The translations under genes and the position numbers were made by a program. From IMG/VR virus record IMGVR_UViG_3300034001_000012, positions 1 through 50,514 of that record: a DNA stretch of 50,514 nt; one strand, 5' to 3'. Below are positions 4,579-50,052 of this stretch, piece after piece; position 1 is the stretch's first letter; each line of letters starts with the position of its first letter. Below the pieces are notes generated by a model. That model was not told the DNA's origin. It worked only from the letters and a program-made list of their open reading frames with translations, and ran no database searches. This DNA is from a virus (lineage: Duplodnaviria; Caudoviricetes).

Positions 4579-5628
4579 ATGATGAGCTCGAACACCCAGA
4601 CTTTAAGTGTCCAGAAACGGTCTCAGCTAGGCGCCCTGCACCAGTTGCATGAGGCACCGGGCAAGCTCAGACGTGACGATCCTCTGGGCGGTGTGACTCT
4701 CTACCTGCGCACCCTTAAAGAGTCCGGGCGCCGCACGCAGCGCGTCAAGCTGGAGATGGCCGCGCGGATCCTCACGGGCGATGGGGATGCTTCGCTTCTC
4801 GATTACAACTGGCGCGCTCTTCGCCGCGGCCACGTCGAGTTCGTGCGCTCGGTGCTGGCCCAGACTTACGCGCCTTCGGTGGTCAACGCCTGTCTCTCCG
4901 CTCTCAAGGGCGTGGCCGAATGGATGATGCACCTGGGGCAGATTGAAGAGGCCGAGGAGCAGAGGATTCGCCGGGTCAAGGGTGTCAGAGCCGACCGGCG
5001 CGCTCGCTCAGGGCGCTCACTTTCAGGCTCTGAGATAGTTGCGCTCTTTCAGTCGTGCGAGCGCGACCGCGCGCGGCTCATAGGACTTCGGGACGCCGCC
5101 CTTCTGACAGTCATCTACGTCGGGGGCTTAAGGTGCAGGGAGACCTGTTCTCTGAAGCTCGCGGACTACAGCCCGCGCCGCCACCAGCTCTTCGTCGAAG
5201 ACGGTAAGGGCAATCGCGAAAGGCGAGCGTACCTTCGCGATGGCGGAGCGCGTAGAGCTATGAACGCCTGGCTGCGCGCCCGCGGGGAAGGAGAAGGGGC
5301 GCTCATCTTGCCCGTCACAAAAAATAACCAGGTCGTGATGCGCCCACTTTCGCGCGACGGGCTCTACAAGGCGCTGCAGCGCCGCGCGGTGGCCGCCGGT
5401 GTCGACCGCTTCTCGATCCATGACCTCAGGCGCTCGTGCGGCTCGCATCTGGTTGCGAAGGGCGCAGACCTGGACACGGTCAGGGACTACCTCGGCCACG
5501 TGGACATCAACACGACGATTGTCTACATCCGGCACGAGGAGCGAAAAAAGCAGGAGGCCTCGCTCAAGCTGAAGGTGAATTTCGGCGGGCGACGCAGAGG
5601 GCGCAAACGCCGCAAGCGCCGGCGCTGA
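4579..5628 (+). CDS. Tyrosine recombinase (Xer/integrase family)
   Basis: GLRCRE (R), GKGNRER (K), HDLRR, LGH, TTIVY catalytic set; Arg-rich C-terminal tail. Confidence 0.95.
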   Translation: MMSSNTQTLSVQKRSQLGALHQLHEAPGKLRRDDPLGGVTLYLRTLKESGRRTQRVKLEMAARILTGDGDASLLDYNWRALRRGHVEFVRSVLAQTYAPSVVNACLSALKGVAEWMMHLGQIEEAEEQRIRRVKGVRADRRARSGRSLSGSEIVALFQSCERDRARLIGLRDAALLTVIYVGGLRCRETCSLKLADYSPRRHQLFVEDGKGNRERRAYLRDGGARRAMNAWLRARGEGEGALILPVTKNNQVVMRPLSRDGLYKALQRRAVAAGVDRFSIHDLRRSCGSHLVAKGADLDTVRDYLGHVDINTTIVYIRHEERKKQEASLKLKVNFGGRRRGRKRRKRRR

Positions 5629-6974: not shown

Positions 6975-7646
6975 ATGAGAAATGACCAAGCGCGTGACAT
7001 TGCCGAAAGACTTGTCGAGTTAATGCGACCCTACTGCACAAGGATAGAGATTGCCGGAAGCCTTAGGCGCGGCAACCCTGTAGTTAAAGACGTTGAGATA
7101 GTTGCCATCCCTGTCTGGGAAGAGCTGAAGCCGCTGCTCGCTCAATCATCCTTCTTCGGTATGGATGAAGTGGTCGAACAAGCTGGGCGCGTTAATCTTC
7201 TTCATCGGTGGGCGGAGCGGGAAACAAATCAGGGCGGTCGCCTGCATGGTCAGATCAACTGGATTAAGGCGGGCCAAAACCCCGAGCCGCTGAACAGGGC
7301 GCCGTTCCCGGAGAAACTTTACTGGAGAGCCATCATCCCTGCAGGCACCAGTCTCAACACGTTTCATGACGTCAAGCTCGACCTGTTTCTGGCCGGTGAA
7401 GATAACTGGGGCAGCATCTTCGTCTACCGGACCGGCAGCCGCGATTTCAACATCGCCTGGCTCCGGTGGATGAAAGCGCATACATCGTTGCGCGCTGACG
7501 AAGGGTACCTGTGGCTCGACGAAGAGAGAATCATCACGCCGACCGAAGAGAGCGTCTTTCAGCTGCTCGGACTTGAATACGTCGAGCCGCGCGAAAGGGT
7601 AGGAGCCGAGGCCCTGAAACCATGGACACCGAAAGTCACAGCATAA
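6975..7646 (+). CDS. Minimal family X DNA polymerase (palm and thumb only)
   Basis: IAGSLRRG...KDVEIV, KLDLF, RTGSRDFN, TEESVFQLLGLEYVEPRER. Confidence 0.88.
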   Translation: MRNDQARDIAERLVELMRPYCTRIEIAGSLRRGNPVVKDVEIVAIPVWEELKPLLAQSSFFGMDEVVEQAGRVNLLHRWAERETNQGGRLHGQINWIKAGQNPEPLNRAPFPEKLYWRAIIPAGTSLNTFHDVKLDLFLAGEDNWGSIFVYRTGSRDFNIAWLRWMKAHTSLRADEGYLWLDEERIITPTEESVFQLLGLEYVEPRERVGAEALKPWTPKVTA

Positions 7647-9154: not shown

Positions 9155-10654
9155 ATGCAGGAACTGACTCAGAAAGTTTCACTCGCAGCGCGCCTCATCG
9201 ATGAGTGCGAAGAGGAGCTGCGCCTGGCGCGCCGCCGCGTCTCAGACCTGGCGCACGCCAATTACCCCAAGCTCAAAGAGGAAGACTTCCAGGCGTTCCT
9301 TAAAGAGCCGTATGTCCTCATCCCGAAGCGCGGCCACGAGTGGTACTGCGCCGTGCCGCGCTGGGTGGACTTCGCCGTCGGATGGCTGGAGAGAGCAACC
9401 CCTAGCTACAACCTCTTCCTCATTAACCGCTACACGCTCTGGCTCGGCGAAGTGCCCGAAGCCCTGCGCGAGGCCACGGGGCTTGAGAAGCCTCCGGGCG
9501 AGCTATCGGTCGTCGATGGGAAGCTCATCTTCAACAAGGCTGATAAGCCCGCGGCAGAGCACTACAAGCAATACATCACACGCTTTGCGGGTGACACAGG
9601 GATAATTACCCGCGGGAAAGAGTTTCAACTCCTGGCTCAGCTCATCCAGGACGGCTACCTGCCCTTTGTCCCGCGCCCGGTGGCCGCCGCAGACTTGCGC
9701 GACCCGCAAGTCAATTTCAACTTCGAGGGCAAGTATCAATTCCAGCGCGAAGCCTACGACTACTTTCTACAGACGGGCGCCGTCGGCGTCTACTGGATGA
9801 CGTCTGCTGGGAAATCCTTCCTGGCCATGGCCGCGCTCGATTCCATCAAGGGAAGGAAGCTGATAGTGGTGCCGACGCGCACGCTCATCGACCAGTGGGT
9901 TAGCTATCTGAAAGATAAAGCGCCGCGTCTTTATCAGGAGTACAACTCCTATTACAGCAAGCAGGTTTATATAGTCACCTACTCTTCGTACGAGAAGGTG
10001 AAAAAGGAAGAGTGGGCGTTTGTGCTCTTCGACGAGTGCCACCGCCTGCCCGCTAACAGCTTCTCGAAGCTCGCGACACTCAAGACCAAATATCGCATGG
10101 GGCTCTCGGCCTCGCCCTATCGCGAGGACGGTCGCACCAACTTCATCATCGCGCTCACCGGTTATCCAATCGGCCAGGACTGGAAATCGCTGATAGCGAT
10201 CTTAGGCAAAGACTTTCACACCGTGGACGTGTGGGTCGTGCCTACAGCTGCGTCGAAGCTCGCCAAAGTGGTTGAGCTTTATCGCTCGGGCGTGAAGACC
10301 CTCATCTTCGCCGACTCGATTGAGTTCGGCGCGCAGATAGCCAAACGCTTAGGCGTGCCCCACGTTCACGGTGGCACTTCAAAGCGCATGGAGATAGCGC
10401 GCACGAGTAAGGCTTTCGTCGCCTCGCGCGTGATGGACGAGGGCATCTCAATCTCCGACCTGGAGCACATCATCGAAGCGGATTTTCTTTATGGCTCCAG
10501 GCGTCAGGAGGTGCAGCGCACAGGCAGGCTTCTACATTCGGAGGCCGGAGCAGCTCATCACGACATCATCATGACGCGTGATGAATTCGAGCAATACGGC
10601 AAGCGCCTGCACGGGCTAGTCGAGAAGGGGTTCAAGATAAACGTTCATCATTGA
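9155..10654 (+). CDS. SF2 helicase, XPB/Rad25-like
   Basis: AGKS Walker A, DECH, GLSASPYREDG, GSRRQEVQRTGR. Confidence 0.9.
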   Translation: MQELTQKVSLAARLIDECEEELRLARRRVSDLAHANYPKLKEEDFQAFLKEPYVLIPKRGHEWYCAVPRWVDFAVGWLERATPSYNLFLINRYTLWLGEVPEALREATGLEKPPGELSVVDGKLIFNKADKPAAEHYKQYITRFAGDTGIITRGKEFQLLAQLIQDGYLPFVPRPVAAADLRDPQVNFNFEGKYQFQREAYDYFLQTGAVGVYWMTSAGKSFLAMAALDSIKGRKLIVVPTRTLIDQWVSYLKDKAPRLYQEYNSYYSKQVYIVTYSSYEKVKKEEWAFVLFDECHRLPANSFSKLATLKTKYRMGLSASPYREDGRTNFIIALTGYPIGQDWKSLIAILGKDFHTVDVWVVPTAASKLAKVVELYRSGVKTLIFADSIEFGAQIAKRLGVPHVHGGTSKRMEIARTSKAFVASRVMDEGISISDLEHIIEADFLYGSRRQEVQRTGRLLHSEAGAAHHDIIMTRDEFEQYGKRLHGLVEKGFKINVHH

Positions 10655-13870: not shown

Positions 13871-15232
13871 TTACCTTGATATGCCGAAATCACGATCATG
13901 GCCATCGCGCTCGATGCCGCGGTCCTGAGTTCGCTGATGCTCATGTCGTGAGAGCCTGTCTTCACGCGTCTGCGAGGCTATAGATCTATCGCGTTCCAGG
14001 CTTCGTTGTTTGAGGTACCCTGTCATCGAGTCCTCGTGGTCGACCAGAGCGGCTGCGCGCGCGTGAGCGTGGCCACAGCGGTCTGCCAGCCAGCCTACAG
14101 CCTCCTCTTTGCTCACCTCCCTGCCCTCAGTCTTCATGACCTGCTGGACGAGACTGACGGCAGTGCGCGCCATCAGATGCCCCTGCCTGTCGAAGGCTCC
14201 GCCGGGCGTGATGGTCACCAGGAGATTCTTATCCGGCTTAACGAAATCGATTGTCCCGCGATTGGCTCCGGCCAATCCTTTGTAGCCCATCATTTTCATC
14301 ACTGTGGCGTGGTCTACGTCCTGCACGCGCTCCTCGGCTCGATCGGCTCGCTCCTGTAAGTTCTGTTTCTGCTCTCTCAGCAGCTCGTTCTTATACCTCT
14401 CCTCAGCCACAAGGAGTTGCTGCTTTGAGATCTCCTGTCGCGCATCGGCCAGCCTCTTTTTCGTCTCATTCAGTTTGTTCCGGGTGTCTCTGGCCAGCAT
14501 CGCCTGGTGGAGCTGCGTCCTGATCGGCTCCTGTATCTGCTCTATCAGCGCCTTGGCAAACTCCTCCTTGAATACCTGGGCAGCATCCTTCGAGAGGCAC
14601 ATCCTGGGAGGCTGCGGCAGCCTGTCGTAATTGACCCTGATATGGGGGTCGCGCTCTATGGCCCGGTAGAACTCCTTGACAGTGGTGTGACGAGCGCGGC
14701 TTCCCTGCTCTCCGCGCTCCAGGCCAAGCTCTTTGACCTGTTCGGCCCAGCGGTCCTGCCACATCGAGAACTTCCCGCGTGTGCCGAAGTAGTGTTTACA
14801 ATTCAGCTTCCCCTTCGGGTCGATAGGTACCGTGTGGGCGTGAATATGCGGCGTGCGCTCGTCCATGTGAAGAATCGCTTTGACGCAGATGCCTCCGTTC
14901 TCTCTCTTCAGGAGGAACTCGCGCGCTGCTGCCGAAAACTGGTCTACTTTTTTGTGGTCGATTTCATCGTTGTCGTCGCGCCACCACTCGGGCGAGGCCG
15001 TGAGCAGCACCTCTATCGCTTCAACGGAATCGCTCCTGGGCTTCCCGCCGTGCTCTGCTATGACCTCTCTGACCATCTCAGGCGTGGGCCTGTCAGAGCC
15101 GAGAATAATCCGATTGTCTTTCTCTCGCGAGGGGTCGGCGTTCGGCGTTTCTCTCTGCCTGCCGTTGTGGAGGCTCGACGAACCAACGCTCCCGCCCTTC
15201 TGCTTTGCCATGCGAGCTATCGCGAATGTCAT
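13871..15232 (-). CDS. mobV: MobV/Pre family relaxase (plasmid recombination enzyme)
   Basis: MTFAIARMAK...HNGR.RETPNAD, TASPEWW, HMDERTPHIH, GLERG..GS.ARH; coiled coil; AAGGA RBS before ATG 15232. Confidence 0.93.
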   Translation of the reverse strand: MTFAIARMAKQKGGSVGSSSLHNGRQRETPNADPSREKDNRIILGSDRPTPEMVREVIAEHGGKPRSDSVEAIEVLLTASPEWWRDDNDEIDHKKVDQFSAAAREFLLKRENGGICVKAILHMDERTPHIHAHTVPIDPKGKLNCKHYFGTRGKFSMWQDRWAEQVKELGLERGEQGSRARHTTVKEFYRAIERDPHIRVNYDRLPQPPRMCLSKDAAQVFKEEFAKALIEQIQEPIRTQLHQAMLARDTRNKLNETKKRLADARQEISKQQLLVAEERYKNELLREQKQNLQERADRAEERVQDVDHATVMKMMGYKGLAGANRGTIDFVKPDKNLLVTITPGGAFDRQGHLMARTAVSLVQQVMKTEGREVSKEEAVGWLADRCGHAHARAAALVDHEDSMTGYLKQRSLERDRSIASQTREDRLSRHEHQRTQDRGIERDGHDRDFGISR

Positions 15233-15260
15233 GCTCTTTTCCTTCAACTCCTGAAGAACT

Positions 15261-15279
15261 AGGTATAGTGGGTACACCT
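15261..15279 (+). promoter_or_regulatory. oriT/RSA-like site candidate
   Basis: AGGTATAGTGGGTACACCT hairpin resembling MOBV RSA core, about 30 bp upstream of mob. Confidence 0.45.
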
Positions 15280-15616
15280 TTATTCCTTCCGTACCCTCTA
15301 TTTCATTCGCAATCACTGAACCATTGATTTTGTACGGGAGCCGATTTAACCAGCGCCGGCCAGGGGAGGAAGACAGGTGATTCGAATTTGGAGTGATAAA
15401 TCATGGCAGGGCAGCAAAGTTGCAAAGAGGAAAACGGATGCCGACAGATGCAGGGATATCAGAATTAACCGGTGAAAATATAGACAGATGAGCAAAGAAA
15501 AAAAAGTAGTCCAGTATCTATGTCCCTGCGCTCGAATACAGGGGGTAAAAATGTAGGTTATAAAATTACCGAATAAGTAGGCTACAAATTTATTGTGGAA
15601 GGGTAAGTGACAAAAG

Positions 15617-15892
15617 TTGGAAGGTAGATTGAACAAAATTTCGTCATATCTGGATGATGAGGAGTTGCATAAATTCAGGCAGATGGTGAAGGCGCGCGGC
15701 ATCACCGAATCTATGTTCATCCGGGAGATGTTAGGCTTCGATGTCAGACAGCGCGGTGCGCCGAAGGGGCACCGCCGGAAGAAGAAAGCGCATTCACCCA
15801 AGCCCGTGAAGTCGAAGCGGTCTGCGAGGATAGATGAGCAGCGCCCGGTCACTCGGCACAGCGGAGAGTCTCAACTATCCTTTCTGGATTGA
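15617..15892 (+). CDS. Ribbon-helix-helix (CopG/MobC-like) protein
   Basis: KISSYLDDEELHKFRQMVKARGITESMFIREML; divergent from mob; upstream GTAGGYTAYAAA x2. Confidence 0.7.
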   Translation: MEGRLNKISSYLDDEELHKFRQMVKARGITESMFIREMLGFDVRQRGAPKGHRRKKKAHSPKPVKSKRSARIDEQRPVTRHSGESQLSFLD

Positions 15893-34745: not shown

Positions 34746-35017
34746 TAAGCTTCGGCCTCCTGCAAGCGGCGGATGACTGGCGCGGGCAGGTCGGGAATCT
34801 TTTCCCCTTTCGCCACCGGCGCGAAAGACTCACTGGTGACGATGACGGTGAAGAGATGCCTCAGCTCGTCATAGAAGGCTTCGACGAACGCGGCGTCTTC
34901 GGGGAGTGGGTTAGCTATAACTTCAAAAATCCCGCAGCCCAAACACATGAAGACCTCCGGCGTTACGCACAGTAGCGCGACACGTGCAGGCCTGGTCTTC
35001 AATTCCGTGTCAGTCAT
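34745..35017 (-). CDS. Hypothetical protein
   Basis: TAATG coupling both sides. Confidence 0.6.
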   Translation of the reverse strand: MTDTELKTRPARVALLCVTPEVFMCLGCGIFEVIANPLPEDAAFVEAFYDELRHLFTVIVTSESFAPVAKGEKIPDLPAPVIRRLQEAEA

Positions 35018-35739
35018 TAGTTCGTAAACTCACCATTGCGGAGGAAGCCGTGATAGTTGCGCGTGGCGATGCTGCCCGCACCGGCGCCGCACGTTACGCC
35101 ATTCTTATCAACGGTGATGTTCGGAGCCTGGCCGTGACGAACCCAGCACTTATGAGGCCGCGCGTCCCTGTAGCTTTGGCACAACTCGTACTTGTGCGAG
35201 AGATAAGGCACGCCGCACTCGGCGCAGGGGCTGTCGCAGTTGTTGGCTCGCCCGTCTATGTTCCAGGGAGTGTTGTCGGGAAGGATGACAACGAGGGAAT
35301 GCCCATCCGGGCCGCGATAATGATCCGTGCCCTCGATTAACATCCAGTCGGCGTGATACATCGCGCCGGGCGGGAGTTCTCCCAGGGAGAGCAGCTCTCC
35401 CGTATCTGGGCGCAGCCACAGCCGGTCGGTCGCGAGTTGCCAGAAGTCTACGTCTTTGAACTCGTAGCCGCACCTGCACACCCGAGGCCAGCGCTCATCA
35501 TCGTGCGGCCAGAAGTCGCCCTGCGTGATGCGCTCGTCCGTCTCCAGCCCGACGGGTATAGGCACCTCTATGGTGTCAATCAGTACCGATTCGTCGTGGC
35601 AACTGTATTCGCCGCCGCGTGCCGGGCAGGGCAGAAGATTCTTCGCGGGGGTGGAATCATAGTTCCACCGCGACGCGTAGCGGCGCAGGGAGCGACGTAC
35701 GCTGGTCGAGCGCTCGACTGTGAAGCAACGGATACTCAT
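35017..35739 (-). CDS. Cys/His-rich protein, possible DUF6527-like C-terminus
   Basis: HKCWVRHG.APNITV...CGAGAGSI...YHGFLRNG. Confidence 0.6.
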   Translation of the reverse strand: MSIRCFTVERSTSVRRSLRRYASRWNYDSTPAKNLLPCPARGGEYSCHDESVLIDTIEVPIPVGLETDERITQGDFWPHDDERWPRVCRCGYEFKDVDFWQLATDRLWLRPDTGELLSLGELPPGAMYHADWMLIEGTDHYRGPDGHSLVVILPDNTPWNIDGRANNCDSPCAECGVPYLSHKYELCQSYRDARPHKCWVRHGQAPNITVDKNGVTCGAGAGSIATRNYHGFLRNGEFTN

Positions 35740-36685: not shown

Positions 36686-38056
36686 TTAGGCGGCGACTTT
36701 CTGAACCTTCAGTCTCCAGTCTTCGACGACCTGACCGCCGAAGCGGACGCGGCCCAGAAGCACTATCTGGTTCTCCTCGGCGTAGCGCTCGCGCAAGACC
36801 TGGATGGTGAAGCCGATGCGGTTGACAAGATAGTAGCCCTTGGCGTCGCCGAAGATAAGCGGGAAGGCATTGGCTGCCACGTCCGGCATGAAGCCGCTCC
36901 AGATGTACGGATAACCGTTGACCTCTTTGAAGCGACCCGAAGCGAGGCCCTGGTCTCCAGCGCCGTAGGTGACGAGCGGGCGTCCGTCCGAATCCTTCAG
37001 CTTACGAATCGCCTTGCCCGTGTTGGTCTTGTTGAAGTACAGCTTCGCATTCTCGTCATACTGCTCAGGCAAGCTTTCCGTCAGGTCGATGAGACCATCG
37101 CCCGTGACCAGGTTAGCGTCGCCGGTCTTGACGATCGCCGGCTGGTTCGCGCCACCCGGATTCATGAGGATGCCGGCGGGCTGGCCCTGGCCGCTGCCGT
37201 TGATGATCATGTCATCTTTGAGCAGTGCAATCGTCTCGAAGAACTTGCCGCTAGCCCAGGAGACGAGCGGGAAAGCCGAATCCTCAATCATGTCGAGCGT
37301 CAGAGGCAGGCTCATCATCGCCGTGTGGACGGGGATGCGAACCTGGCCGAATGCGGGATCTGTGACGCGGTGCGCGGTCGCGCTCGAAGGGAGTTCGCCC
37401 GTCCAGGTCACACGCATGCCCGTGGTGTACTTGTTGTCTGCCGTATAGTTGACCTTGGAGATGTTGAGATTGTCGCGGCTGGTTTGCAGCTGCTCAACCA
37501 GGCCCAGGATGCGGGTCGGCGTAGGCTTCCTCTCAATGATGCCCATCTGTATGTCGTCGGGCGCGATGAATCCGCCCGCCGAATCCACTCCCTCCTGGAG
37601 CGTCTTGCGCTGGCTGGAGGTCAGGTTCTCATAACCCTTGCGCAGATAGTCACGGTAGGAACGCTTGTAATCGAGGGTGGAGATGGCCGCAAGCTGCTTG
37701 CTGTCTAAACCCAGTTCGCCCTCCTCGTAGACGGCTGCCAGCGTCTTGCGGTCGATGACCGTATCACCGGCGGGCTGGAAGCCCTCGAACTTGACTTCGC
37801 CGGGCGTGCCGGCCGAATGGCGCAAGCTGCCGGGCGCAGGCTCGTCGTTCAGCTTCTTCAGCTCGGCCTCGTTCTGATCGGCGAAAGCCTCGCGTTCCTC
37901 GGCCTTGGCGCGGTCGGCCTGTATGCCTTTAATCTCTCCGATGAGAGTGTCGGATTCCTGAAGCTCCGCTTCAGTGGCGTCCGTCTTCGCCAAAATCTCC
38001 TGCACGCGGGCGCGCTTTGTCGCCTCTTGCTGTGCTAACAGTTGTGATCTTTTCAC
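36686..38056 (-). CDS. Major capsid protein, HK97 fold with delta domain
   Basis: Coiled-coil N-terminus, GGFIAP, NGSGQGQPAGI, LKDSDGRP, FGD. Confidence 0.97.
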   Translation of the reverse strand: MKRSQLLAQQEATKRARVQEILAKTDATEAELQESDTLIGEIKGIQADRAKAEEREAFADQNEAELKKLNDEPAPGSLRHSAGTPGEVKFEGFQPAGDTVIDRKTLAAVYEEGELGLDSKQLAAISTLDYKRSYRDYLRKGYENLTSSQRKTLQEGVDSAGGFIAPDDIQMGIIERKPTPTRILGLVEQLQTSRDNLNISKVNYTADNKYTTGMRVTWTGELPSSATAHRVTDPAFGQVRIPVHTAMMSLPLTLDMIEDSAFPLVSWASGKFFETIALLKDDMIINGSGQGQPAGILMNPGGANQPAIVKTGDANLVTGDGLIDLTESLPEQYDENAKLYFNKTNTGKAIRKLKDSDGRPLVTYGAGDQGLASGRFKEVNGYPYIWSGFMPDVAANAFPLIFGDAKGYYLVNRIGFTIQVLRERYAEENQIVLLGRVRFGGQVVEDWRLKVQKVAA

Positions 38057-38154: not shown

Positions 38155-39723
38155 CTATTCTTGCGGGACGGCGATGCCAACATTCGCCGCTTCTGTGATC
38201 AAAAAGTCTCTTCGAAGCTTCAACGCACGTTCGGAAGTGTCTGACTTCGGCTTGGGCTCCGCATCTTTGCAGAGCGCATCCATGTCGTCATGTACCTGCT
38301 GCATCGCCTCGCTTGCTTCCTTGATGCGTGTCATCGCTGACTGCATCCGCTCGCGGTTGGCGGCGCTGATCGTACGTCCCTCTTTAACGCGGTAAGCTTG
38401 AATCGATCTGCCGCGTGTGACGAACTCCTTTACGGTAGCAAGCACCTTATCGGAGTGAACCGCGAACTTCAGCCCGGCAAGCAGGCCGTGTTGTGCGGAT
38501 AAAGATTCTTCCTCTTTGAACTCCGCATTCGCTTTCCCGTCGCTCAGATACATGTAAGGCGAGCAGGACGATTGCGGATAACCCGAGAGCGGGATGATGG
38601 TGCGCTCTTCGCCTATGACAATGGCGAGAGCATCGAACCTCAGAGCTATCGGTTGAAACTTTTCTATCTTGGGAGGCTCAGCGTTCGCTTCGACATAAGC
38701 GAGCGTGATGTGCGGGTCAAAGCCGTGGTCTCTGCGCGGTGCCACACCAGCGCATTCCAGGACGTATGCAACCCAGCAGTAGAGCTCCGCCAGCCCCGGC
38801 ATGTCCACGCTGGCATAGAGCACCGATTTGTTGTCGGAGTTCTTTGTCGGGCTGAAGGTGCCAAGCCCTGAGACGCGCCCAGTGAGCGGCGTACGCCACG
38901 AAGCTAGGTCTTTCACGGCCACCATAGCCTTGGCGACCGTCATGTCGTCGAGTGCCGCCACGTCGCCGCAATAGCAGAGCGTCAGGTGGAGCTGGTCTGC
39001 CGCTTCCCCGCCCTCCAGGGCGAGGGCCTGCGCAGATTCAGGAGACAGGAAGAAGCCGACGAACAGGCCCGTGTGCTCGGCACCGGCTGCGGCATTGCTG
39101 AACGCGCCCTTGACTTCCGTCACCGCAGCTTTAGGCTCGGCGCCGACGCTCACGATTGAGACCTCGTACAGCTTGACCTTGAGCAGCAGGCGGACGCGCG
39201 CCGTTCTTTTCAGGCGCTCGATGATTTCGGGCGTCGGATTTTTGACGTACTCAATCGCCTCGAAGCCTGTCACATAACGCCACTCTTCGGCGACGTAGCC
39301 GATGGAGAGCTTGACGGATTTGCCTTTATCGAGCCGGTTCTTAACCTTCAGGCGAACTTGCTGCGCGTCGTCGGTCGGATGGAACTCTGATCGGATGAAA
39401 AGACCCTGCTCGTCTTCGTGAGCGTCAACGATGATTCCTATCTCATCTTTAATCCCCCAGTCGTGATCAGGAGCTGTCCAGCCCGCCTGGATGAACTCTG
39501 CCAGCGATTCCTTGAAGCAGCCTGCGACCGTAATGTCGTCGTAAGAGTCCAGGCTGCCCAAATTGTTGCCGTAACCCTCGAAGCCTCCATGCCCGTCAGC
39601 CAGCGCTTTGAACGGCGCCAGGTCAACGAACTTATATTCACGTGTAGACTGCTCGGTGGCCTTCTGCGAAAAGATTTTCTTTGTGGAGTCGGACATGAAT
39701 TTACTCTTGCGGGTGACAGCCAA
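38155..39723 (-). CDS. HK97-type prohead protease fused to Acb1-like 2H phosphoesterase
   Basis: FEGY, DSYDD, DHD, LSIGY, LYEVSIV protease motifs; HLTL and HITL motifs; GRTISAAN tail; start may be 39696. Confidence 0.9.
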   Translation of the reverse strand: MAVTRKSKFMSDSTKKIFSQKATEQSTREYKFVDLAPFKALADGHGGFEGYGNNLGSLDSYDDITVAGCFKESLAEFIQAGWTAPDHDWGIKDEIGIIVDAHEDEQGLFIRSEFHPTDDAQQVRLKVKNRLDKGKSVKLSIGYVAEEWRYVTGFEAIEYVKNPTPEIIERLKRTARVRLLLKVKLYEVSIVSVGAEPKAAVTEVKGAFSNAAAGAEHTGLFVGFFLSPESAQALALEGGEAADQLHLTLCYCGDVAALDDMTVAKAMVAVKDLASWRTPLTGRVSGLGTFSPTKNSDNKSVLYASVDMPGLAELYCWVAYVLECAGVAPRRDHGFDPHITLAYVEANAEPPKIEKFQPIALRFDALAIVIGEERTIIPLSGYPQSSCSPYMYLSDGKANAEFKEEESLSAQHGLLAGLKFAVHSDKVLATVKEFVTRGRSIQAYRVKEGRTISAANRERMQSAMTRIKEASEAMQQVHDDMDALCKDAEPKPKSDTSERALKLRRDFLITEAANVGIAVPQE

Positions 39724-39856: not shown

Positions 39857-40090
39857 TTAAGACTTCTCTATCAATTCGTAAATATCTGCGTATTCGACCG
39901 GCTCAACCCAGTCATTACAGCAGAGGCAACCCCCGTCGTTGGCTCCCGTTAATAAATCTCCTATGAGATATATTTCGCCCGTAGCAGATTTGATTAACAT
40001 TCCAGCATGAAGCTCGATTTCCGCTTCAGGAGTCCACGGGCGCCAGGTCAAGTGGCTTGCCAGCTTTTCATAGTTCTTATCGATTTCCAT
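39857..40090 (-). CDS. Hypothetical protein
   Basis: GGAG RBS. Confidence 0.55.
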   Translation of the reverse strand: MEIDKNYEKLASHLTWRPWTPEAEIELHAGMLIKSATGEIYLIGDLLTGANDGGCLCCNDWVEPVEYADIYELIEKS

Positions 40091-40119: not shown

Positions 40120-40536
40120 TTATACCCGCTTGCGGCCGATGTGGCGCCAGGAGGGGCGCTCGAACTCGGGGATGTAAGCAGCTCCCCAGACCATCAGAGT
40201 TAGCAGCAGACGGTATTTGAATGGATGCCAGTAACGCCGCGCTCGAGTACGCCACCAGTAGTAGAGCCAGAGTAACTTATTCAGCCCGTCCGTGCGGGAA
40301 TATAGGGCACCGTCATAGCACCAGTAAGCTTCATCGTCATCATCGATTAATTTCAGCGGCCACGGCAGAAAGTTGATCTCTTTCGGAAACTCGTCAACGC
40401 TTTGATTGAGTTCGAAACGGAGCGTCTGCCTGTCGATGATGACGGGTAGATTGGCGTCGCCTTCCCATTTGTAGGTGACGTGACGACGGCCGAGAGGCAG
40501 TTGATGCCACGTGGCAATGATGGTTGCGTATTTCAT
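40120..40536 (-). CDS. Hypothetical protein
   Basis: GAGGA RBS. Confidence 0.55.
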   Translation of the reverse strand: MKYATIIATWHQLPLGRRHVTYKWEGDANLPVIIDRQTLRFELNQSVDEFPKEINFLPWPLKLIDDDDEAYWCYDGALYSRTDGLNKLLWLYYWWRTRARRYWHPFKYRLLLTLMVWGAAYIPEFERPSWRHIGRKRV

Positions 40537-40549
40537 TAAGTCCTCTCAC

Positions 40550-41956
40550 TCATGCGGCTAACTTTGCCGGCGTGCCTGTGTCTTCTTCCGGCGGGAGTTC
40601 CTGCTTCGGGGTGGCCTGAGAGAAATAAACATCGTCGCTCGTCTCAACCTTCAGGCCCGCGCGCGAGCGCGCTTCCGAGCGCTTCATCCATCCGCCCTTG
40701 TATGCTGTCGAGAGTCGCGTGTAGAGCTTGTTCTGGTCGTCCTGCAGGACGCGCACCTGCGTCAGGTCATGGCGCAGGTTGCGCTTCTTATTTTTTTCGA
40801 ACTCCGGCAGGTACTGGAGGTTGAGCTGCCCGGCGATGATGCGATGCAAGGGGATGACGTATGACTCGTAGGCCGCTTCGCGCATCTCGCCAGCGTTGTG
40901 CATCGTGTTCCGGTCTAAGCCTGCTCCAAAGCCCAGTACGGAGGCCGGAATGCCTATTACTGAGGCTACCCTTTCTTCCGGCACCCGCCGGAGCATCTTC
41001 ATGTCCATCTCCTTCGGGCTGAAGGAGAGCTTATGAATTTCGATACCGACGCCGTTAACGACGGGTTTGCCGCGCTCGTCTCCGGTGGTGCGCCTGACGA
41101 ACTCTTCCTTAATCTTGCTAAGGTCTCCTTCCACGCTGCCTTCTTTGGGGCTGACGGCGAAGGGGAACACGCCAGAGTTCTTCATGATCAGGGCACTGCA
41201 GTTCGCCGCTTCGTTGTCGGCAAATATTTCGCGCAGGAGTGAAGCGAAGTCAGAAAGCCCTTTGCGTGGGTTCTGGGGGTCGATGCCGTTGCGGAAGTGA
41301 ATCATATCCTCGGGCTTTATCTCCCACTCCACGCCGTTGATCAGATAGGCGTAGTGGCTGATATAGACAGAATCATCTCCGACAGGCCAGCGAGGTTCCA
41401 CCAAATAATACGGCAGCGGCCAAATCTGAATCACCTGCCCCTGGCGGTTGCGCACTTTCCAGAAGTAGACGTTCCCGTCAATCATCCAGGAGAGAGAAAA
41501 GAACATCCAGAGGAGTTCGCCTGAGTAGTAAGGGTTGGGCTGCTGGAGCCGCAGGGCGGCTTCGTGGTCTTCAATGATATTAAGGTTTCCCCCGGCATCC
41601 TTTTCAACGACCTGGAGAGGAGCTTCCGGCAGCGTACGCCCCAGCCAATTGACGGCAGCCATCACGAGGGAGCTCTGCTTGAGGTCTCCGACCTCCCGCG
41701 CGTAGTCAATGCCGCTGTTCATGAAGCGGCCGAAGATGGAGAAGAAAAACTTCTCGAAGTTTGAGCCGTAGCCGCCGTCGGCGCCGTAGTGGCGCATCTG
41801 GCTGGCGAAAGCCGATGCTTTTCCGCGCAGCGCAGAAACTGCCGAGGAGAAGCGCTCCTTCACCAGGCCGAACGTGGACTGGGCAGTTTCAACCTCAGAG
41901 GGCGACATGCGCCGCTGCTTCTGTAATTGCTGGTTCCTACTCATGCGATCTCCCAC
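40550..41956 (-). CDS. Portal protein, HK97 family
   Basis: PNPY, DGNVY, MIHFR, RVASVIGIP motifs; follows TerL. Confidence 0.95.
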   Translation of the reverse strand: MGDRMSRNQQLQKQRRMSPSEVETAQSTFGLVKERFSSAVSALRGKASAFASQMRHYGADGGYGSNFEKFFFSIFGRFMNSGIDYAREVGDLKQSSLVMAAVNWLGRTLPEAPLQVVEKDAGGNLNIIEDHEAALRLQQPNPYYSGELLWMFFSLSWMIDGNVYFWKVRNRQGQVIQIWPLPYYLVEPRWPVGDDSVYISHYAYLINGVEWEIKPEDMIHFRNGIDPQNPRKGLSDFASLLREIFADNEAANCSALIMKNSGVFPFAVSPKEGSVEGDLSKIKEEFVRRTTGDERGKPVVNGVGIEIHKLSFSPKEMDMKMLRRVPEERVASVIGIPASVLGFGAGLDRNTMHNAGEMREAAYESYVIPLHRIIAGQLNLQYLPEFEKNKKRNLRHDLTQVRVLQDDQNKLYTRLSTAYKGGWMKRSEARSRAGLKVETSDDVYFSQATPKQELPPEEDTGTPAKLAA

Positions 41957-43332
41957 TTCCTTCTCTTCGGTGTCATCAGCCCGTATCGCACCGAGTCATA
42001 CGGGTCGTCCCCGCCATTGCCTTCCTCGTCAGCGTCAACCTTGAGCACGTCCTCCGGGTTCTTCGGATCGTGCTGCAAGCTTGGAAGGCACTCAATTAGG
42101 CGCGCACACTTGCTTGAAATCTCCCACTTCGGTTCAAGGCCGGCTTCCGAGTCGCCCATCAAATCAAGCAGCAGGGCTGCGCCGTTGACCCGATCATCAT
42201 TCGCCTTCTCCAGCTTGATGCCGCGCTCAAGATACTGATCCGCGATAGTCTTCGCGTTCTCATCCCCACGCTGACTAAAACAATCATCGCCGGCGTAGAA
42301 GCCCTTCAGCCGGTCGAGCGAAACACCGTTGCGCTCCAGCATGGCTTTAATATTGTCAGCATGCTTGGACACGTGAGTCTTTCGCTGGACATATTCGTCG
42401 AGCGTATATTTTTTACCGTCGGCTTCGGCGTGCAGATATACAGCCGTGGGATGCGTGAAGCCGTAGTCGAACGAAGCCCAGACAGTCCAGTTCTCAGGCA
42501 CCTTAAACCAGGGCTTGACCATGCGGTCGTGTTGCCAGTTGGAAAAGAATTGCCCCGCCTCAATGTCCCAGTCGCCATCCATCCAGGCGGCGCGCAACCA
42601 CCCCTTCAAATCTTTAAGGACGTTAACGTAATCACGATTCAGGAAGGCGTTATCTTTATAGGTGGCGAAGATGAAACGCGTATCAACCTCTTGGTTAAGG
42701 CGCGCTGGATTGATGATCCTCCGCTTAAACCATGCATGGCCGATGCCGCCCGGGTTAGTGGTGTAGTAGGTGCGAGGCCTCCAGTCGCTGCGGCTCGTGC
42801 GCACGCAGGTTCGGATGTCCGTAATCTTCTTCTCGGTGAGCTGAGTGGCCTCTTCGATGCCGACGCCGTCATACTCTATTCCGAGATAGGCATCGATGTC
42901 CGATTCGTTACGATAGTGACCCAGCACGATACGGGACTGGTTAGGGAAGAGCAGCAGACCGGCTTGGGTTTTATATTCGTGCGGGGTGTAGCGGAAGATG
43001 CGCCGCCGGAGGTCGTCAAAACTTTCCTTAGCAGATTTGAGCACCTTGCGCAGGAAGAGATATTTGAGGCCGTCACGGCGCTGGCAGTCGTCGAGGCCGA
43101 TTTGAGCGAGCGTGCCGTGCGATTTCGCGCCCCCGCGCGCACCACCAATCCCTACCTGGGTCGGCCCGTCGGGTAGATCACACTCACGCGCTGCGGCGTG
43201 CATGAGCAGCTGCTTGGGCTGCGGGCAATAGCCGGCTCGCAGAAAGTTAACGAGCGCGTCCTTAGGGAGTCCGGCGTTGCGCGCGGCAAACGCCAACCTC
43301 TCAGCCGCCTGTATTTGCGTCGCCGTCGCCAT
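41941..43332 (-). CDS. terL: Terminase large subunit
   Basis: GGARGGAKS, IEEATQL, TTNPGG, FDYGF, DDPYDSVRY; likely start MATATQ. Confidence 0.96.
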   Translation of the reverse strand: MATATQIQAAERLAFAARNAGLPKDALVNFLRAGYCPQPKQLLMHAAARECDLPDGPTQVGIGGARGGAKSHGTLAQIGLDDCQRRDGLKYLFLRKVLKSAKESFDDLRRRIFRYTPHEYKTQAGLLLFPNQSRIVLGHYRNESDIDAYLGIEYDGVGIEEATQLTEKKITDIRTCVRTSRSDWRPRTYYTTNPGGIGHAWFKRRIINPARLNQEVDTRFIFATYKDNAFLNRDYVNVLKDLKGWLRAAWMDGDWDIEAGQFFSNWQHDRMVKPWFKVPENWTVWASFDYGFTHPTAVYLHAEADGKKYTLDEYVQRKTHVSKHADNIKAMLERNGVSLDRLKGFYAGDDCFSQRGDENAKTIADQYLERGIKLEKANDDRVNGAALLLDLMGDSEAGLEPKWEISSKCARLIECLPSLQHDPKNPEDVLKVDADEEGNGGDDPYDSVRYGLMTPKRRKWEIA

Positions 43333-43627
43333 AAATACGATCAATAGCGTCTGCAATAGGCGGCGTGAGATCTTCGCGCTCGTCCTCCTGCTGCTCGACT
43401 CTGGGTACCGGTGTGCCGTAGAGGTAAGATAAAAGGAGCTTACGAGACTCACTGCGCACCCGAAAAGATACGGAGGTTGAGTCCACAACGAGCTGGGTGA
43501 ATATCTTGTCCAGCTCGCCCTTCTTACAAGCTTTAGTAAGTCGCTTATGAAGGTCATCTTCGACCGCTTTACGCTTGCGTCCGGCCCCGGCGCGCGCGCC
43601 TCCACTTTTTCCAGCTACACCTGCCAT
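43301..43627 (-). CDS. terS: Terminase small subunit
   Basis: GKSGGARAGAGRK N-terminus; overlaps terL start. Confidence 0.8.
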   Translation of the reverse strand: MAGVAGKSGGARAGAGRKRKAVEDDLHKRLTKACKKGELDKIFTQLVVDSTSVSFRVRSESRKLLLSYLYGTPVPRVEQQEDEREDLTPPIADAIDRIYGDGDANTGG

Positions 43628-43656: not shown

Positions 43657-44268
43657 TTATATTCGTGCCCCGCACGTCCCACACACGGCCTCTATTTGAG
43701 CCCGCGTGATTAGTGGCTCCATTTGGGCAGCTTCGACCATCAACTGCACATTCGGGTGAACTGCTCCGACGCCATACCTGCGCACTATGGAAATAAATTC
43801 GCTTACGTCATGCGCGCGTTTAACGAGCTTCGGGCGCCCTTCGTCGTCAATAACGGGCTCCCCCTCCTTGTCGAACTTCGGGCGGTAGTGCAGGAGCTCG
43901 TGCTCGACCAGCGCGCAAAAGGCCGCGTCCGAGCACGTGGCCGCGTAGGGGGCGTAGAGCCAGATTCTTGCCTGCGGCACTCGCCCGTGCATGAGACATA
44001 GGTGATCAACCCGCTCGGCTGAAGGCCAGGGTTTCCCGTTCACCTGCACAATCTCCGCCATCCCTGCGACCGGCATCCCACCGTCAATGTATTCAACATT
44101 CGTCCACAAGAAGACGATGTCCGCATTGCGCAGGTGTTCATGTTCGGGATTGATGAGCGGCGAGTCCTCGTTGATAAAGCAAGCCCTTGCCCAGTCAGCC
44201 ACCTCATTAGCAGGTTCTAACTGATAACCGATTTGGTGAAGATGTTCCGGAGGGTGGGGTCTGTTCAT
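43657..44268 (-). CDS. Putative phage metallopeptidase
   Basis: LVEHELLH (HExxH) and HDVSEF..IVRRYG. Confidence 0.8.
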   Translation of the reverse strand: MNRPHPPEHLHQIGYQLEPANEVADWARACFINEDSPLINPEHEHLRNADIVFLWTNVEYIDGGMPVAGMAEIVQVNGKPWPSAERVDHLCLMHGRVPQARIWLYAPYAATCSDAAFCALVEHELLHYRPKFDKEGEPVIDDEGRPKLVKRAHDVSEFISIVRRYGVGAVHPNVQLMVEAAQMEPLITRAQIEAVCGTCGARI

Positions 44269-49386: not shown

Positions 49387-50052
49387 CTATGCAACAAGGC
49401 TTTGCCCGGTCTTGAAAGTGGGAATGAGAGCGGGCGCATAATGAGCAACCGAATTCCTCTCGACCTGGCAGAGCAGCCTGATGCGCGCGTCTGCAACCTT
49501 CGAAAAGTTCAGCGACTTAGCCACGCCAAACCGATTCATTCGCACGTTGTCACGCCAGGCGCGCGCCCATCCCGCAGAGACCCAGTAGACGTTGCTCGTG
49601 CGCTTCTCCAGCACCATGAAGCCCGCAATGTTGCCGGCCCGCTCCGAAGCGTACAGGTTATCAACCTGGTGCTCTTTGAAGTTTTCGATTGAGATGGAAG
49701 GCCCGGCGAATTCTTTGGCGTCGAATTCAATGTGATAACCGAGGATGCCGCCCACATAGTCGGGAGCGCTCTTCACCCGGAGGAGCGGTGCGCCGCCCCT
49801 CTGCTCTCGCCGAGTCGTCCCCTTAACATCAACGAAATAGATTTCGGTGCGCGCGCGCAACTCGGGCTCAGCACTTTTCCAGCGCCATTCATTCACGTAA
49901 GAGTAGGCGTTAGGAATCTCGTAGACGTGGCCCCAGTGCTGGCGGTCATACCAGGTGTGGGTGTTCTTCAGTATTCCCTGGAATAGACGGCCCCGGTTAG
50001 CGTGAGACGTGTTGCGTTCGATGAATGATAATTGGTGGTGTACAGGCATCAC
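49387..50052 (-). CDS. recU: RecU-like Holliday junction resolvase
   Basis: NRGRLFQ..L, KSAPDYVG...EFDAKE, KEHQVDNL. Confidence 0.85.
   Translation of the reverse strand: MMPVHHQLSFIERNTSHANRGRLFQGILKNTHTWYDRQHWGHVYEIPNAYSYVNEWRWKSAEPELRARTEIYFVDVKGTTRREQRGGAPLLRVKSAPDYVGGILGYHIEFDAKEFAGPSISIENFKEHQVDNLYASERAGNIAGFMVLEKRTSNVYWVSAGWARAWRDNVRMNRFGVAKSLNFSKVADARIRLLCQVERNSVAHYAPALIPTFKTGQSLVA

Follow-up and report, generated by a model that had tools for sequence, protein, structure and literature searches.

A prohead protease fused to a 2H phosphoesterase of a phage family distinct from Acb1 and LigT/ThpR

Why would a phage build a phosphoesterase into the protease of its prohead? The question is raised by a 50,514-nt stretch of DNA (hereafter the window; positions 1 to 50,514 of IMG/VR record IMGVR_UViG_3300034001_000012), which derives from an uncultured phage of the Caudoviricetes and is possibly partial (completeness 74%, CheckV). 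One gene of its head module, on the minus strand, joins an S78 (HK97-type) protease domain to a 2H phosphoesterase domain, an arrangement noticed beforehand in a first-pass annotation that a model had made from the sequence alone. Here the fusion is confirmed, its 2H domain is placed in a large third phage family, distinct from the phage enzyme Acb1 and from bacterial LigT/ThpR, and the readings of its role are weighed.

A 2H domain within an S78 prohead protease

The gene and the parts of its product are as follows (aa, amino acids; pLDDT, predicted local distance difference test).

38155..39723, minus strand: prohead protease-2H phosphoesterase fusion gene; frame open for 522 aa from a TTG, likely start the ATG at 39696, which gives 513 aa
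39109..39591, minus strand: S78 (HK97-type) protease domain, aa 45-205 (Pfam PF04586, E 4e-10, 40.4 bits versus a cut-off of 21)
39109..39111, minus strand: Lys205, which closes the protease domain and is a predicted site of self-cleavage (the window protein and 10 of 10 close relatives read K-[GS]; linker of pLDDT<50)
38581..39078, minus strand: 2H phosphoesterase domain, aa 216-381 (Pfam PF13563 and PF02834; AlphaFold2; Foldseek and VIA)
38973..38988, minus strand: first catalytic motif, H246-L-T-L-C-Y251 (HxTxxY; H246/T248), with H246 at 38988
38695..38712, minus strand: second catalytic motif, H338-I-T-L-A-Y343 (HxTxxY; H338/T340), with PHITL from 38715 and H338 at 38712; HxTxxR in ThpR
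38515..38556, minus strand: linker after the 2H domain, with YxYL (aa 390-393) and with Lys397 and Lys403 as candidate second cut sites (pLDDT<50)
38182..38466, minus strand: C-terminal helical tail with KEGRTISAAN (KEGRT from 38385), common to 2H-free proteases

The public protein entry is 513 aa long and begins at residue 10 of the open frame, at the ATG at 39696. That a 2H domain with two HxT motifs lies between the S78 domain and the C-terminal GRTISAAN segment, as the first-pass annotation had it, was borne out by Pfam (2_5_RNA_ligase2 covers aa 241-370, E 2e-8), by the motif positions and by AlphaFold2. Modelled alone, the 2H domain reached a mean pLDDT of 91.7; in the model of the whole protein (predicted template modelling score 0.45) the protease, the 2H domain and the helical tail fold apart and are joined by linkers of pLDDT<50. 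With such model confidence, and with Z scores of up to 18 against solved 2H enzymes, the domain is not a chance resemblance; the protease-2H fusion is confirmed as real and its 2H domain looks intact. On the protease side, His87 (39463-39465) and Ser140 (39304-39306), which we take to be the catalytic residues of the S78 domain, are invariant in 11 of 11 aligned proteases. The G+C content of the 2H domain (0.62) differs mildly from that of its flanks (0.56 and 0.55). An internal restart producing the 2H domain alone was considered and rejected, as a crude scan for ribosome-binding sites flagged only a GTG at codon 191, which lies inside the protease domain and is unsupported.

Release by autoproteolysis, which had been offered as an alternative to a permanent tether, fits the low-confidence linkers with their predicted Lys sites, and the 2H domain is probably freed by the protease's own Lys-specific cuts during head maturation. 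The support for these cut sites is Lys conservation, with no null model: all 14 viral loci have Lys where the protease domain ends, with a Gly or Ser after it in 12, and the capsid protein has Lys in five of five aligned sequences at position 151 (37604-37606), the predicted substrate site that closes its N-terminal scaffold region. The HK97 capsid protein is cleaved at K103/S104 (PMC10275583).

Relation to Acb1 and to LigT/ThpR

Searched as a family, the 2H domain matches 3442 clusters (50% identity) at E<=0.001, and 1789 at E<=1e-10. A sample of 163 rows, comprising the window, 27 earlier homologues and new rows among the best 150 of the 3442 clusters, was used for the comparisons below; both catalytic motifs are intact in 161 of them.

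The domain had been called Acb1-like on the strength of T4 Acb1 motifs (TGLYV, IHSTICY and PHITLSY). These motifs were cited correctly, and the likeness to Acb1 (T4 gp57B; Erwinia phage FBB1, 7T26/7T27; Hobbs et al. 2022, PMC9117128), a nuclease that cleaves cyclic di- and trinucleotides and rescues phages from bacterial CBASS defence, extends to the 2H fold, the HxT/HxT tetrad and a Tyr five residues after both His, as well as to the TGLx start and the phage origin. Membership of the Acb1 family is a different matter. The window protein scored 15.5 bits against Pfam Acb1 (PF23474; E 0.015), below the gathering cut-off of 27, where T4 Acb1 scores 202.7; it matched PHROG 755 (the T4 57B family) at E 0.0027, versus 5e-68 for T4; and the BLAST alignment with T4 Acb1 was restricted to the motifs. 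In profile-profile comparison (hhalign), the family matched LigT at 99.0% (E 7e-18) and Acb1 at 94.7% (E 6e-8), the Acb1 alignment being shallow (six rows). With deeper profiles (59 Acb1 and 16 LigT rows), the LigT score exceeded the Acb1 score in all 163 family rows, the means being 38 and 12 bits.

The structural model gave the same order. By VIA, its best counterparts were drCPDase 5H7E (Z 18.1; root mean square deviation (rmsd) 3.1; 164 aligned) and Thermus LigT 1IUH (Z 17.1; 2.8; 159), with E. coli ThpR at Z 16.2, the phosphodiesterase PDE-9 at 11.5 and Acb1 at 10.7 and 10.2; Acb1 7T26 (Z 10.7, rmsd 3.4, 130 aligned) stood at rank 34 in Foldseek. Compared with solved structures, the domain sequence alone returned chance matches only, so that the family profile was required. 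A helix follows the first HxT motif, as in the LigT scaffold, and 92 residues lie from His to His in the window, the median being 70 for Acb1 and 84 for LigT. The first-pass annotation had itself proposed setting the structure against Acb1 and LigT/ThpR and had taken greater closeness to LigT as telling against its idea; the model is indeed closer to LigT (Z 16-18 versus 10-11). As a lead only, viral clusters that include LigT-like and Acb1 families surround the domain in the ESM Atlas, all of them <0.9.

Neither known group, however, takes in the window protein on a tree. In an unrooted tree of 55 rows, the 18 Acb1 rows lie on one side of a branch (support 100/100, stem 1.98) with the window protein outside, the 16 LigT rows, which come from a single bacterial phylum, lie on one side of another (100/99), and the 20 family rows fall in between, the phage 2H family itself not being recovered as a single clade. 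Five positions after the second His, 154 of 163 family rows and 57 of 59 Acb1 rows have Tyr, whereas 15 of 16 LigT rows have Arg or Lys there; in ThpR, whose motifs are HxTxxF and HxTxxR, this Arg is essential for activity (Remus et al. 2014, PMC4201822). The 2H domain therefore combines an Acb1-like active-site signature (HxTxxY motifs, with Tyr at the position of the ThpR Arg) with a LigT-like scaffold. Of the Acb1 base-stacking residues, Y12 aligns to F221, where an aromatic residue is not conserved in the family (Met in 54%), and the columns of W74 and F107 are of low confidence or in conflict. The YxYL segment was examined as a counterpart of the C-terminal Acb1 lid, with its E141 and W147, and rejected, since it also occurs in six 2H-free proteases.

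Against membership of Acb1 thus stand the PF23474 score under the cut-off, a structure nearer LigT and the separate Acb1 clade; T4 Acb1 is, besides, a stand-alone gene, while the window 2H domain is fused, has a His-His spacing of 92 rather than 70 and is without the lid Trp. With the LigT/ThpR enzymes (4QAK, 1IUH, 5H7E; TIGR02258), which hydrolyse RNA 2',3'-cyclic phosphate to 2'-phosphate, it shares the closest solved scaffold and a GxGxF strand, yet those enzymes carry HxTxxF and HxTxxR, with Arg130, whereas the window domain carries HxTxxY twice, is phage-borne and sits on a head protein; the missing essential Arg and the separate LigT clade (narrowly sampled) exclude it from that family as well. 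The domain belongs to a third, large phage family of 2H enzymes that is neither Acb1 nor LigT/ThpR, so that the epithet Acb1-like holds for the HxTxxY motifs, as opposed to the ThpR HxTxxR, and fails for family membership by profile, tree and structure. A LigT-like scaffold does not decide the substrate either, as Acb1 itself has been termed LigT-like and several LigT-like lineages cleave immune signals (PMC11410667).

Carriers of the family, the protease slot and the genomic setting

Fusion partners in the 163 rows were protease-type proteins (90), portal proteins (20), MuF (7) and others (24), with 22 rows short or stand-alone, counts that lean to proteases because the sample represents the nearest few percent to a protease-borne query. 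Five protease types are involved, namely Mu gpI-like (48), S78-like (20, among which 9 labels are weak at 17-40 bits), XkdF (15), the phrog_15531 protease (4) and DUF2213 (3), and the 2H domain is located before or after the protease depending on the fusion. The protease is the favourite carrier of the domain, though not the sole one. On the domain tree, at least 31 changes of partner label are needed across 120 labelled tips (mean of 65 after shuffling), pointing to repeated recruitment to head proteins.

Cultured phages contribute 33 records with a family 2H domain, including fusions to an XkdF protease encoded by gene 18 of Arthrobacter phage Edmundo and by gene 7 of Microbacterium phage ValentiniPuff; gene 18 of Arthrobacter phage Laroye is another cultured carrier. 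Family homologues carry database labels such as 'aldolase' or 'RNA ligase'; the fusion loci of Arthrobacter cluster AL (gene 18) and ValentiniPuff are L002:3833-4945 and L003:3752-4924, and the AL labels read aldolase, RNA ligase or protease. Long polyproteins with a family 2H domain also occur (P0091, P0051, P0075, P0060 and P0073), their partners being a methyltransferase with a DNA ligase and an XkdF protease; a protease-like region with a capsid protein; ParB; and GNAT or PcfJ.

Among 10 close proteases (287-914 aa searched), the 2H domain is present in three, whose protease domains are 63-67% identical to that of the window, and absent in seven (six at 69-72%). The 2H domains of the fused orthologues are 64-67% identical to the window's, comparable to the protease domain. 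All seven 2H-free close proteases have, at the corresponding slot, a helical module of ~71 aa unrelated to the 2H domain, and more distant proteases carry it too. The occupied slot suggests that the 2H domain most likely replaced another module, the helical one; the ~165-aa insert described at first is accordingly a 2H domain at 38581-39078 as stated, but no plain insertion. On a protease tree without outgroup, a single origin of the five 2H-bearing proteases had a p-AU of 0.32, and the order of gain and loss is not settled. The helical module, for which no family was matched in the searches, is carried by P0168-P0173, P0175, P0007 and P0010 and by the protease ORFs (open reading frames) of L029, L032, L033 and L035; P0007 and P0010 have the helical module and a 2H domain together. 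At L034:7989-9590, the protease is followed by an unnamed domain of ~110 aa, and a look-alike follows the 2H domain in P0016, both seen by eye.

Across 14 related viral loci, the protease fusion occurs in two, a 2H domain elsewhere in one, and none in the fetched DNA of 11. The one exception, L027, is a close phage (capsid protein 64%, protease domain 69% and portal 47% identical) whose protease is without 2H, and whose portal (L027:3240-5216) bears a different 2H domain at its C-terminus, scoring 27.6 against Pfam Acb1 (cut-off 27) and matching the T4 57B PHROG at E 9.5e-13. This single case suggests selection for carrying a 2H domain on one head protein or another, without restriction to the protease. 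A weak Acb1 match (E 0.063) is also present at the C-terminus of the solved portal 8HDS (Pam3).

That 2H domains ride on head proteins and that they may degrade signals are already published ideas. Iyer et al. 2017 (PMC5512222) reported phage polyvalent proteins in which MuF or portal is joined to a 2H domain, and proposed an RNase or signal-degrading role; their fusions resemble the present one in placing the 2H domain on a head-morphogenesis protein and in the absence of an RNA ligase partner, whereas the accessible text names MuF and portal, not prohead proteases, and describes no cut sites or swappable slot. Doherty et al. 2025 (10.1101/2025.08.21.671373) found nucleotide messengers to be cleaved by diverse lineages of phage 2H enzymes other than Acb1, and noted extra domains in 13 of 75 phage 2H enzymes, with 'proteases' among them in one clause. 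Their PDE-9 (9Q2G/9Q2Y) is the enzyme that aligned to the model at Z 11.5, and the window family may or may not be among those assayed (multi-domain PDE-13 and PDE-16). Further prior art includes PMC7302621, PMC5513430, PMC13728456 and 10.1101/2024.08.21.608784. Within the open-access literature, to which the search was confined with subscription papers outside its scope, no treatment of protease-2H fusions as a paired trigger and quencher was found. Relative to HK97 gp4-type proteases, the window protease is alike in its S78 match, its conserved His and Ser, its position between portal and capsid and a capsid scaffold region ending in Lys, and differs in that an enzyme of 170 aa separates its protease domain from its helical tail.

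The head module runs in the order terminase, portal, two small ORFs, protease and HK97-type capsid, its other annotated members being the following.

41941..43605, minus strand: terminase large subunit (PHROG phrog_2), context of a late head module
40550..41956, minus strand: portal protein without 2H, whose homologue in L027 has one
36686..38056, minus strand: HK97-type major capsid protein (Pfam PF05065, aa 161-451)

The two ORFs between portal and protease (40120-40536 and 39857-40090, minus strand) are unannotated, and the one of 138 aa has a 30% identical homologue directly after the L027 portal. In the head-tail region, a Cys/His-rich ORF of 240 aa (35017-35739, minus strand), 50-66% identical in L026 and L027, gave no match to Pfam or PHROG. 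A gene of a phage metallopeptidase family (43657-44268, minus strand) lies directly upstream of the terminase genes. Elsewhere are genes for a PolX thumb-domain protein (6975-7646, plus strand), a superfamily 2 helicase (9155-10654, plus strand) and a RecU-like resolvase (49387-50052, minus strand), together with a MobV-type relaxase (13871-15316, minus strand), a ribbon-helix-helix protein (15617-15892, plus strand) and a tyrosine recombinase (4579-5628, plus strand). From its relaxase and recombinase genes, the phage is possibly temperate or plasmid-like; the relaxase is ~30% identical to cyanobacterial plasmid relaxases. A scan of viral contigs with the single protein as query returned 0 matches.

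Possible roles of the fused enzyme

At a probability of about one half, the favoured reading is that the 2H domain degrades a host nucleotide alarm signal late, at the time of head assembly, whether fused or cut free. Given the gene position, the protease-2H protein would be made late and abundantly with the head genes; the conserved motifs suggest that the 2H domain acts as a phosphodiesterase; and its substrate, judged from analogy and with RNA end healing of the ThpR type excluded, may be an immune oligonucleotide such as the signal of CBASS (a bacterial defence against phages that signals through cyclic oligonucleotides). The enzyme would ride in the swappable slot and be released by the protease's own Lys-specific cuts, the fusion serving as a means to make and place it at head assembly, when CBASS fires.

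A number of observations weigh against this reading. No activity report was identified in the literature for any family member, and two structural groups in Doherty et al. 2025 cleaved 0 of 18 substrates, groups that may or may not include the present family. The nearest solved folds are RNA 2',3'-cyclic phosphodiesterases by both Foldseek and VIA. Two arginines common in the family are replaced in the window, R289 (88%) by Thr and R315 (85%) by Tyr, positions at which close relatives also vary. A counterpart of the Acb1 lid Trp147 is absent, with no Trp past residue 317, although this bears more on Acb1 membership than on function, as lids vary among active 2H phosphodiesterases. As for release, the second Lys site follows YxYL and reads K397-A and K403-E in the window but K-S in most relatives, and the density of K-[SAG] in the capsid protein (3 of 13 Lys in the scaffold region versus 2 of 15 in the mature part) is uninformative. 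The protease-leaning partner sample and the weak S78-like labels belong here too. GTDB genomes yielded matches of 32-36% only, no host was assigned, and exposure to CBASS is presumed in this reading.

The first-pass annotation had gone further and read the protein as trigger and antidote, with the 2H domain tied specifically to the protease on the ground that CD-NTases (cGAS/DncV-like nucleotidyltransferases) are turned on by protease activity, a 1:1 tether quenching the signal at its source. Its background claim, that prohead proteases activate some CD-NTases, is published for two phages: CBASS is activated late and by the activity of the T4 prohead protease, gp21 activating EcCdnG (10.64898/2026.03.04.709575, in whose accessible text the words 'fusion' and 'fused' are absent), and the scaffold domain of the Bas13 protease triggers EcCdnD12 toxicity (10.1101/2023.05.21.541620). 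The tether agrees with protease-type proteins being the commonest partner, five types making up 90 of the 141 fused rows with the 2H domain on either side. The T4 and Bas13 prohead proteases, however, are other proteases than S78, presumably sharing its fold. The idea is weakened further by portal or MuF carriers in 27 of the 141 fused rows, by the seven of ten close proteases without 2H and by L027, which keeps a 69%-identical 2H-free protease and has its 2H domain on the portal. The slot may hold the helical module or another domain, or be empty, and with such varied contents proteases may simply tolerate cargo; moreover, no report of such an S78 protease cleaving a CD-NTase was found in the accessible literature. 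Trigger and antidote in one protein is an unlikely account. The same holds for its widest form, in which a third 2H lineage would have been recruited repeatedly to at least five prohead protease types because CBASS senses the protease, with trigger and quencher in one chain; confinement of the nuclease to the prohead or to the time of head assembly may also dodge Panoptes-type decoys that punish free Acb1.

It is similarly doubtful that the 2H domain is a virion-delivered effector, loaded into the prohead, cut free, ejected and acting early on signals of type III CRISPR or other systems, or on RNA. The predicted Lys sites in the flexible linkers that flank the domain would permit it, and fusions to portal, MuF and capsid proteins recall the model of polyvalent proteins put forward by Iyer et al. 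2017 (PMC5512222); yet the head would need to retain a folded domain of 170 aa, which would then have to get through the tail, and since CBASS fires late, few injected copies would probably matter little. Both this account and that of trigger and antidote overlap with the favoured reading, whereas the true alternatives are an enzyme directed at RNA and a passenger. A LigT/Usb1-like 2',3'-cyclic phosphodiesterase or RNase working on RNA ends, unrelated to second messengers, would explain the best solved matches (drCPDase, Thermus LigT, E. coli ThpR and human Usb1, Z 15-18), the stronger profile match to LigT and a His-His spacing nearer 84 than 70. Nevertheless, the essential Arg of the ThpR HxTxxR motif is absent, a Pfam scan of 70 proteins or domains of the window (14 plus 56) found no RNA ligase in a record that is possibly incomplete, and a prohead would seem an odd site for RNA repair; we consider such a role rather improbable. 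Least credible by far is that the domain is a passenger, neutral or in decay, in a linker slot that tolerates it: the seven 2H-free close proteases and the two arginines lost in the window copy would suit this, but motifs intact in 161 of 163 rows and an identity with the fused orthologues comparable to that of the protease domain speak against it.

The surprise of the late signal-degrading enzyme favoured here is limited, as the general idea is published, such fusions are common and this locus is one of many; what the locus adds is a swappable slot with close relatives that have or do not have the 2H domain, plus a portal-borne counterpart in a sister phage. The 2026 finding that prohead-protease activity activates CBASS allows a direct test of phages that pair the sensed protein with an antidote. 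If the 2H domain cleaves immune nucleotides, an anti-defence enzyme would lie in some thousands of phage head genes, missed by the Acb1 profile and masked by the current labels 'RNA ligase', 'aldolase' and 'protease', and phage head proteins would be modular carriers of counter-defence.

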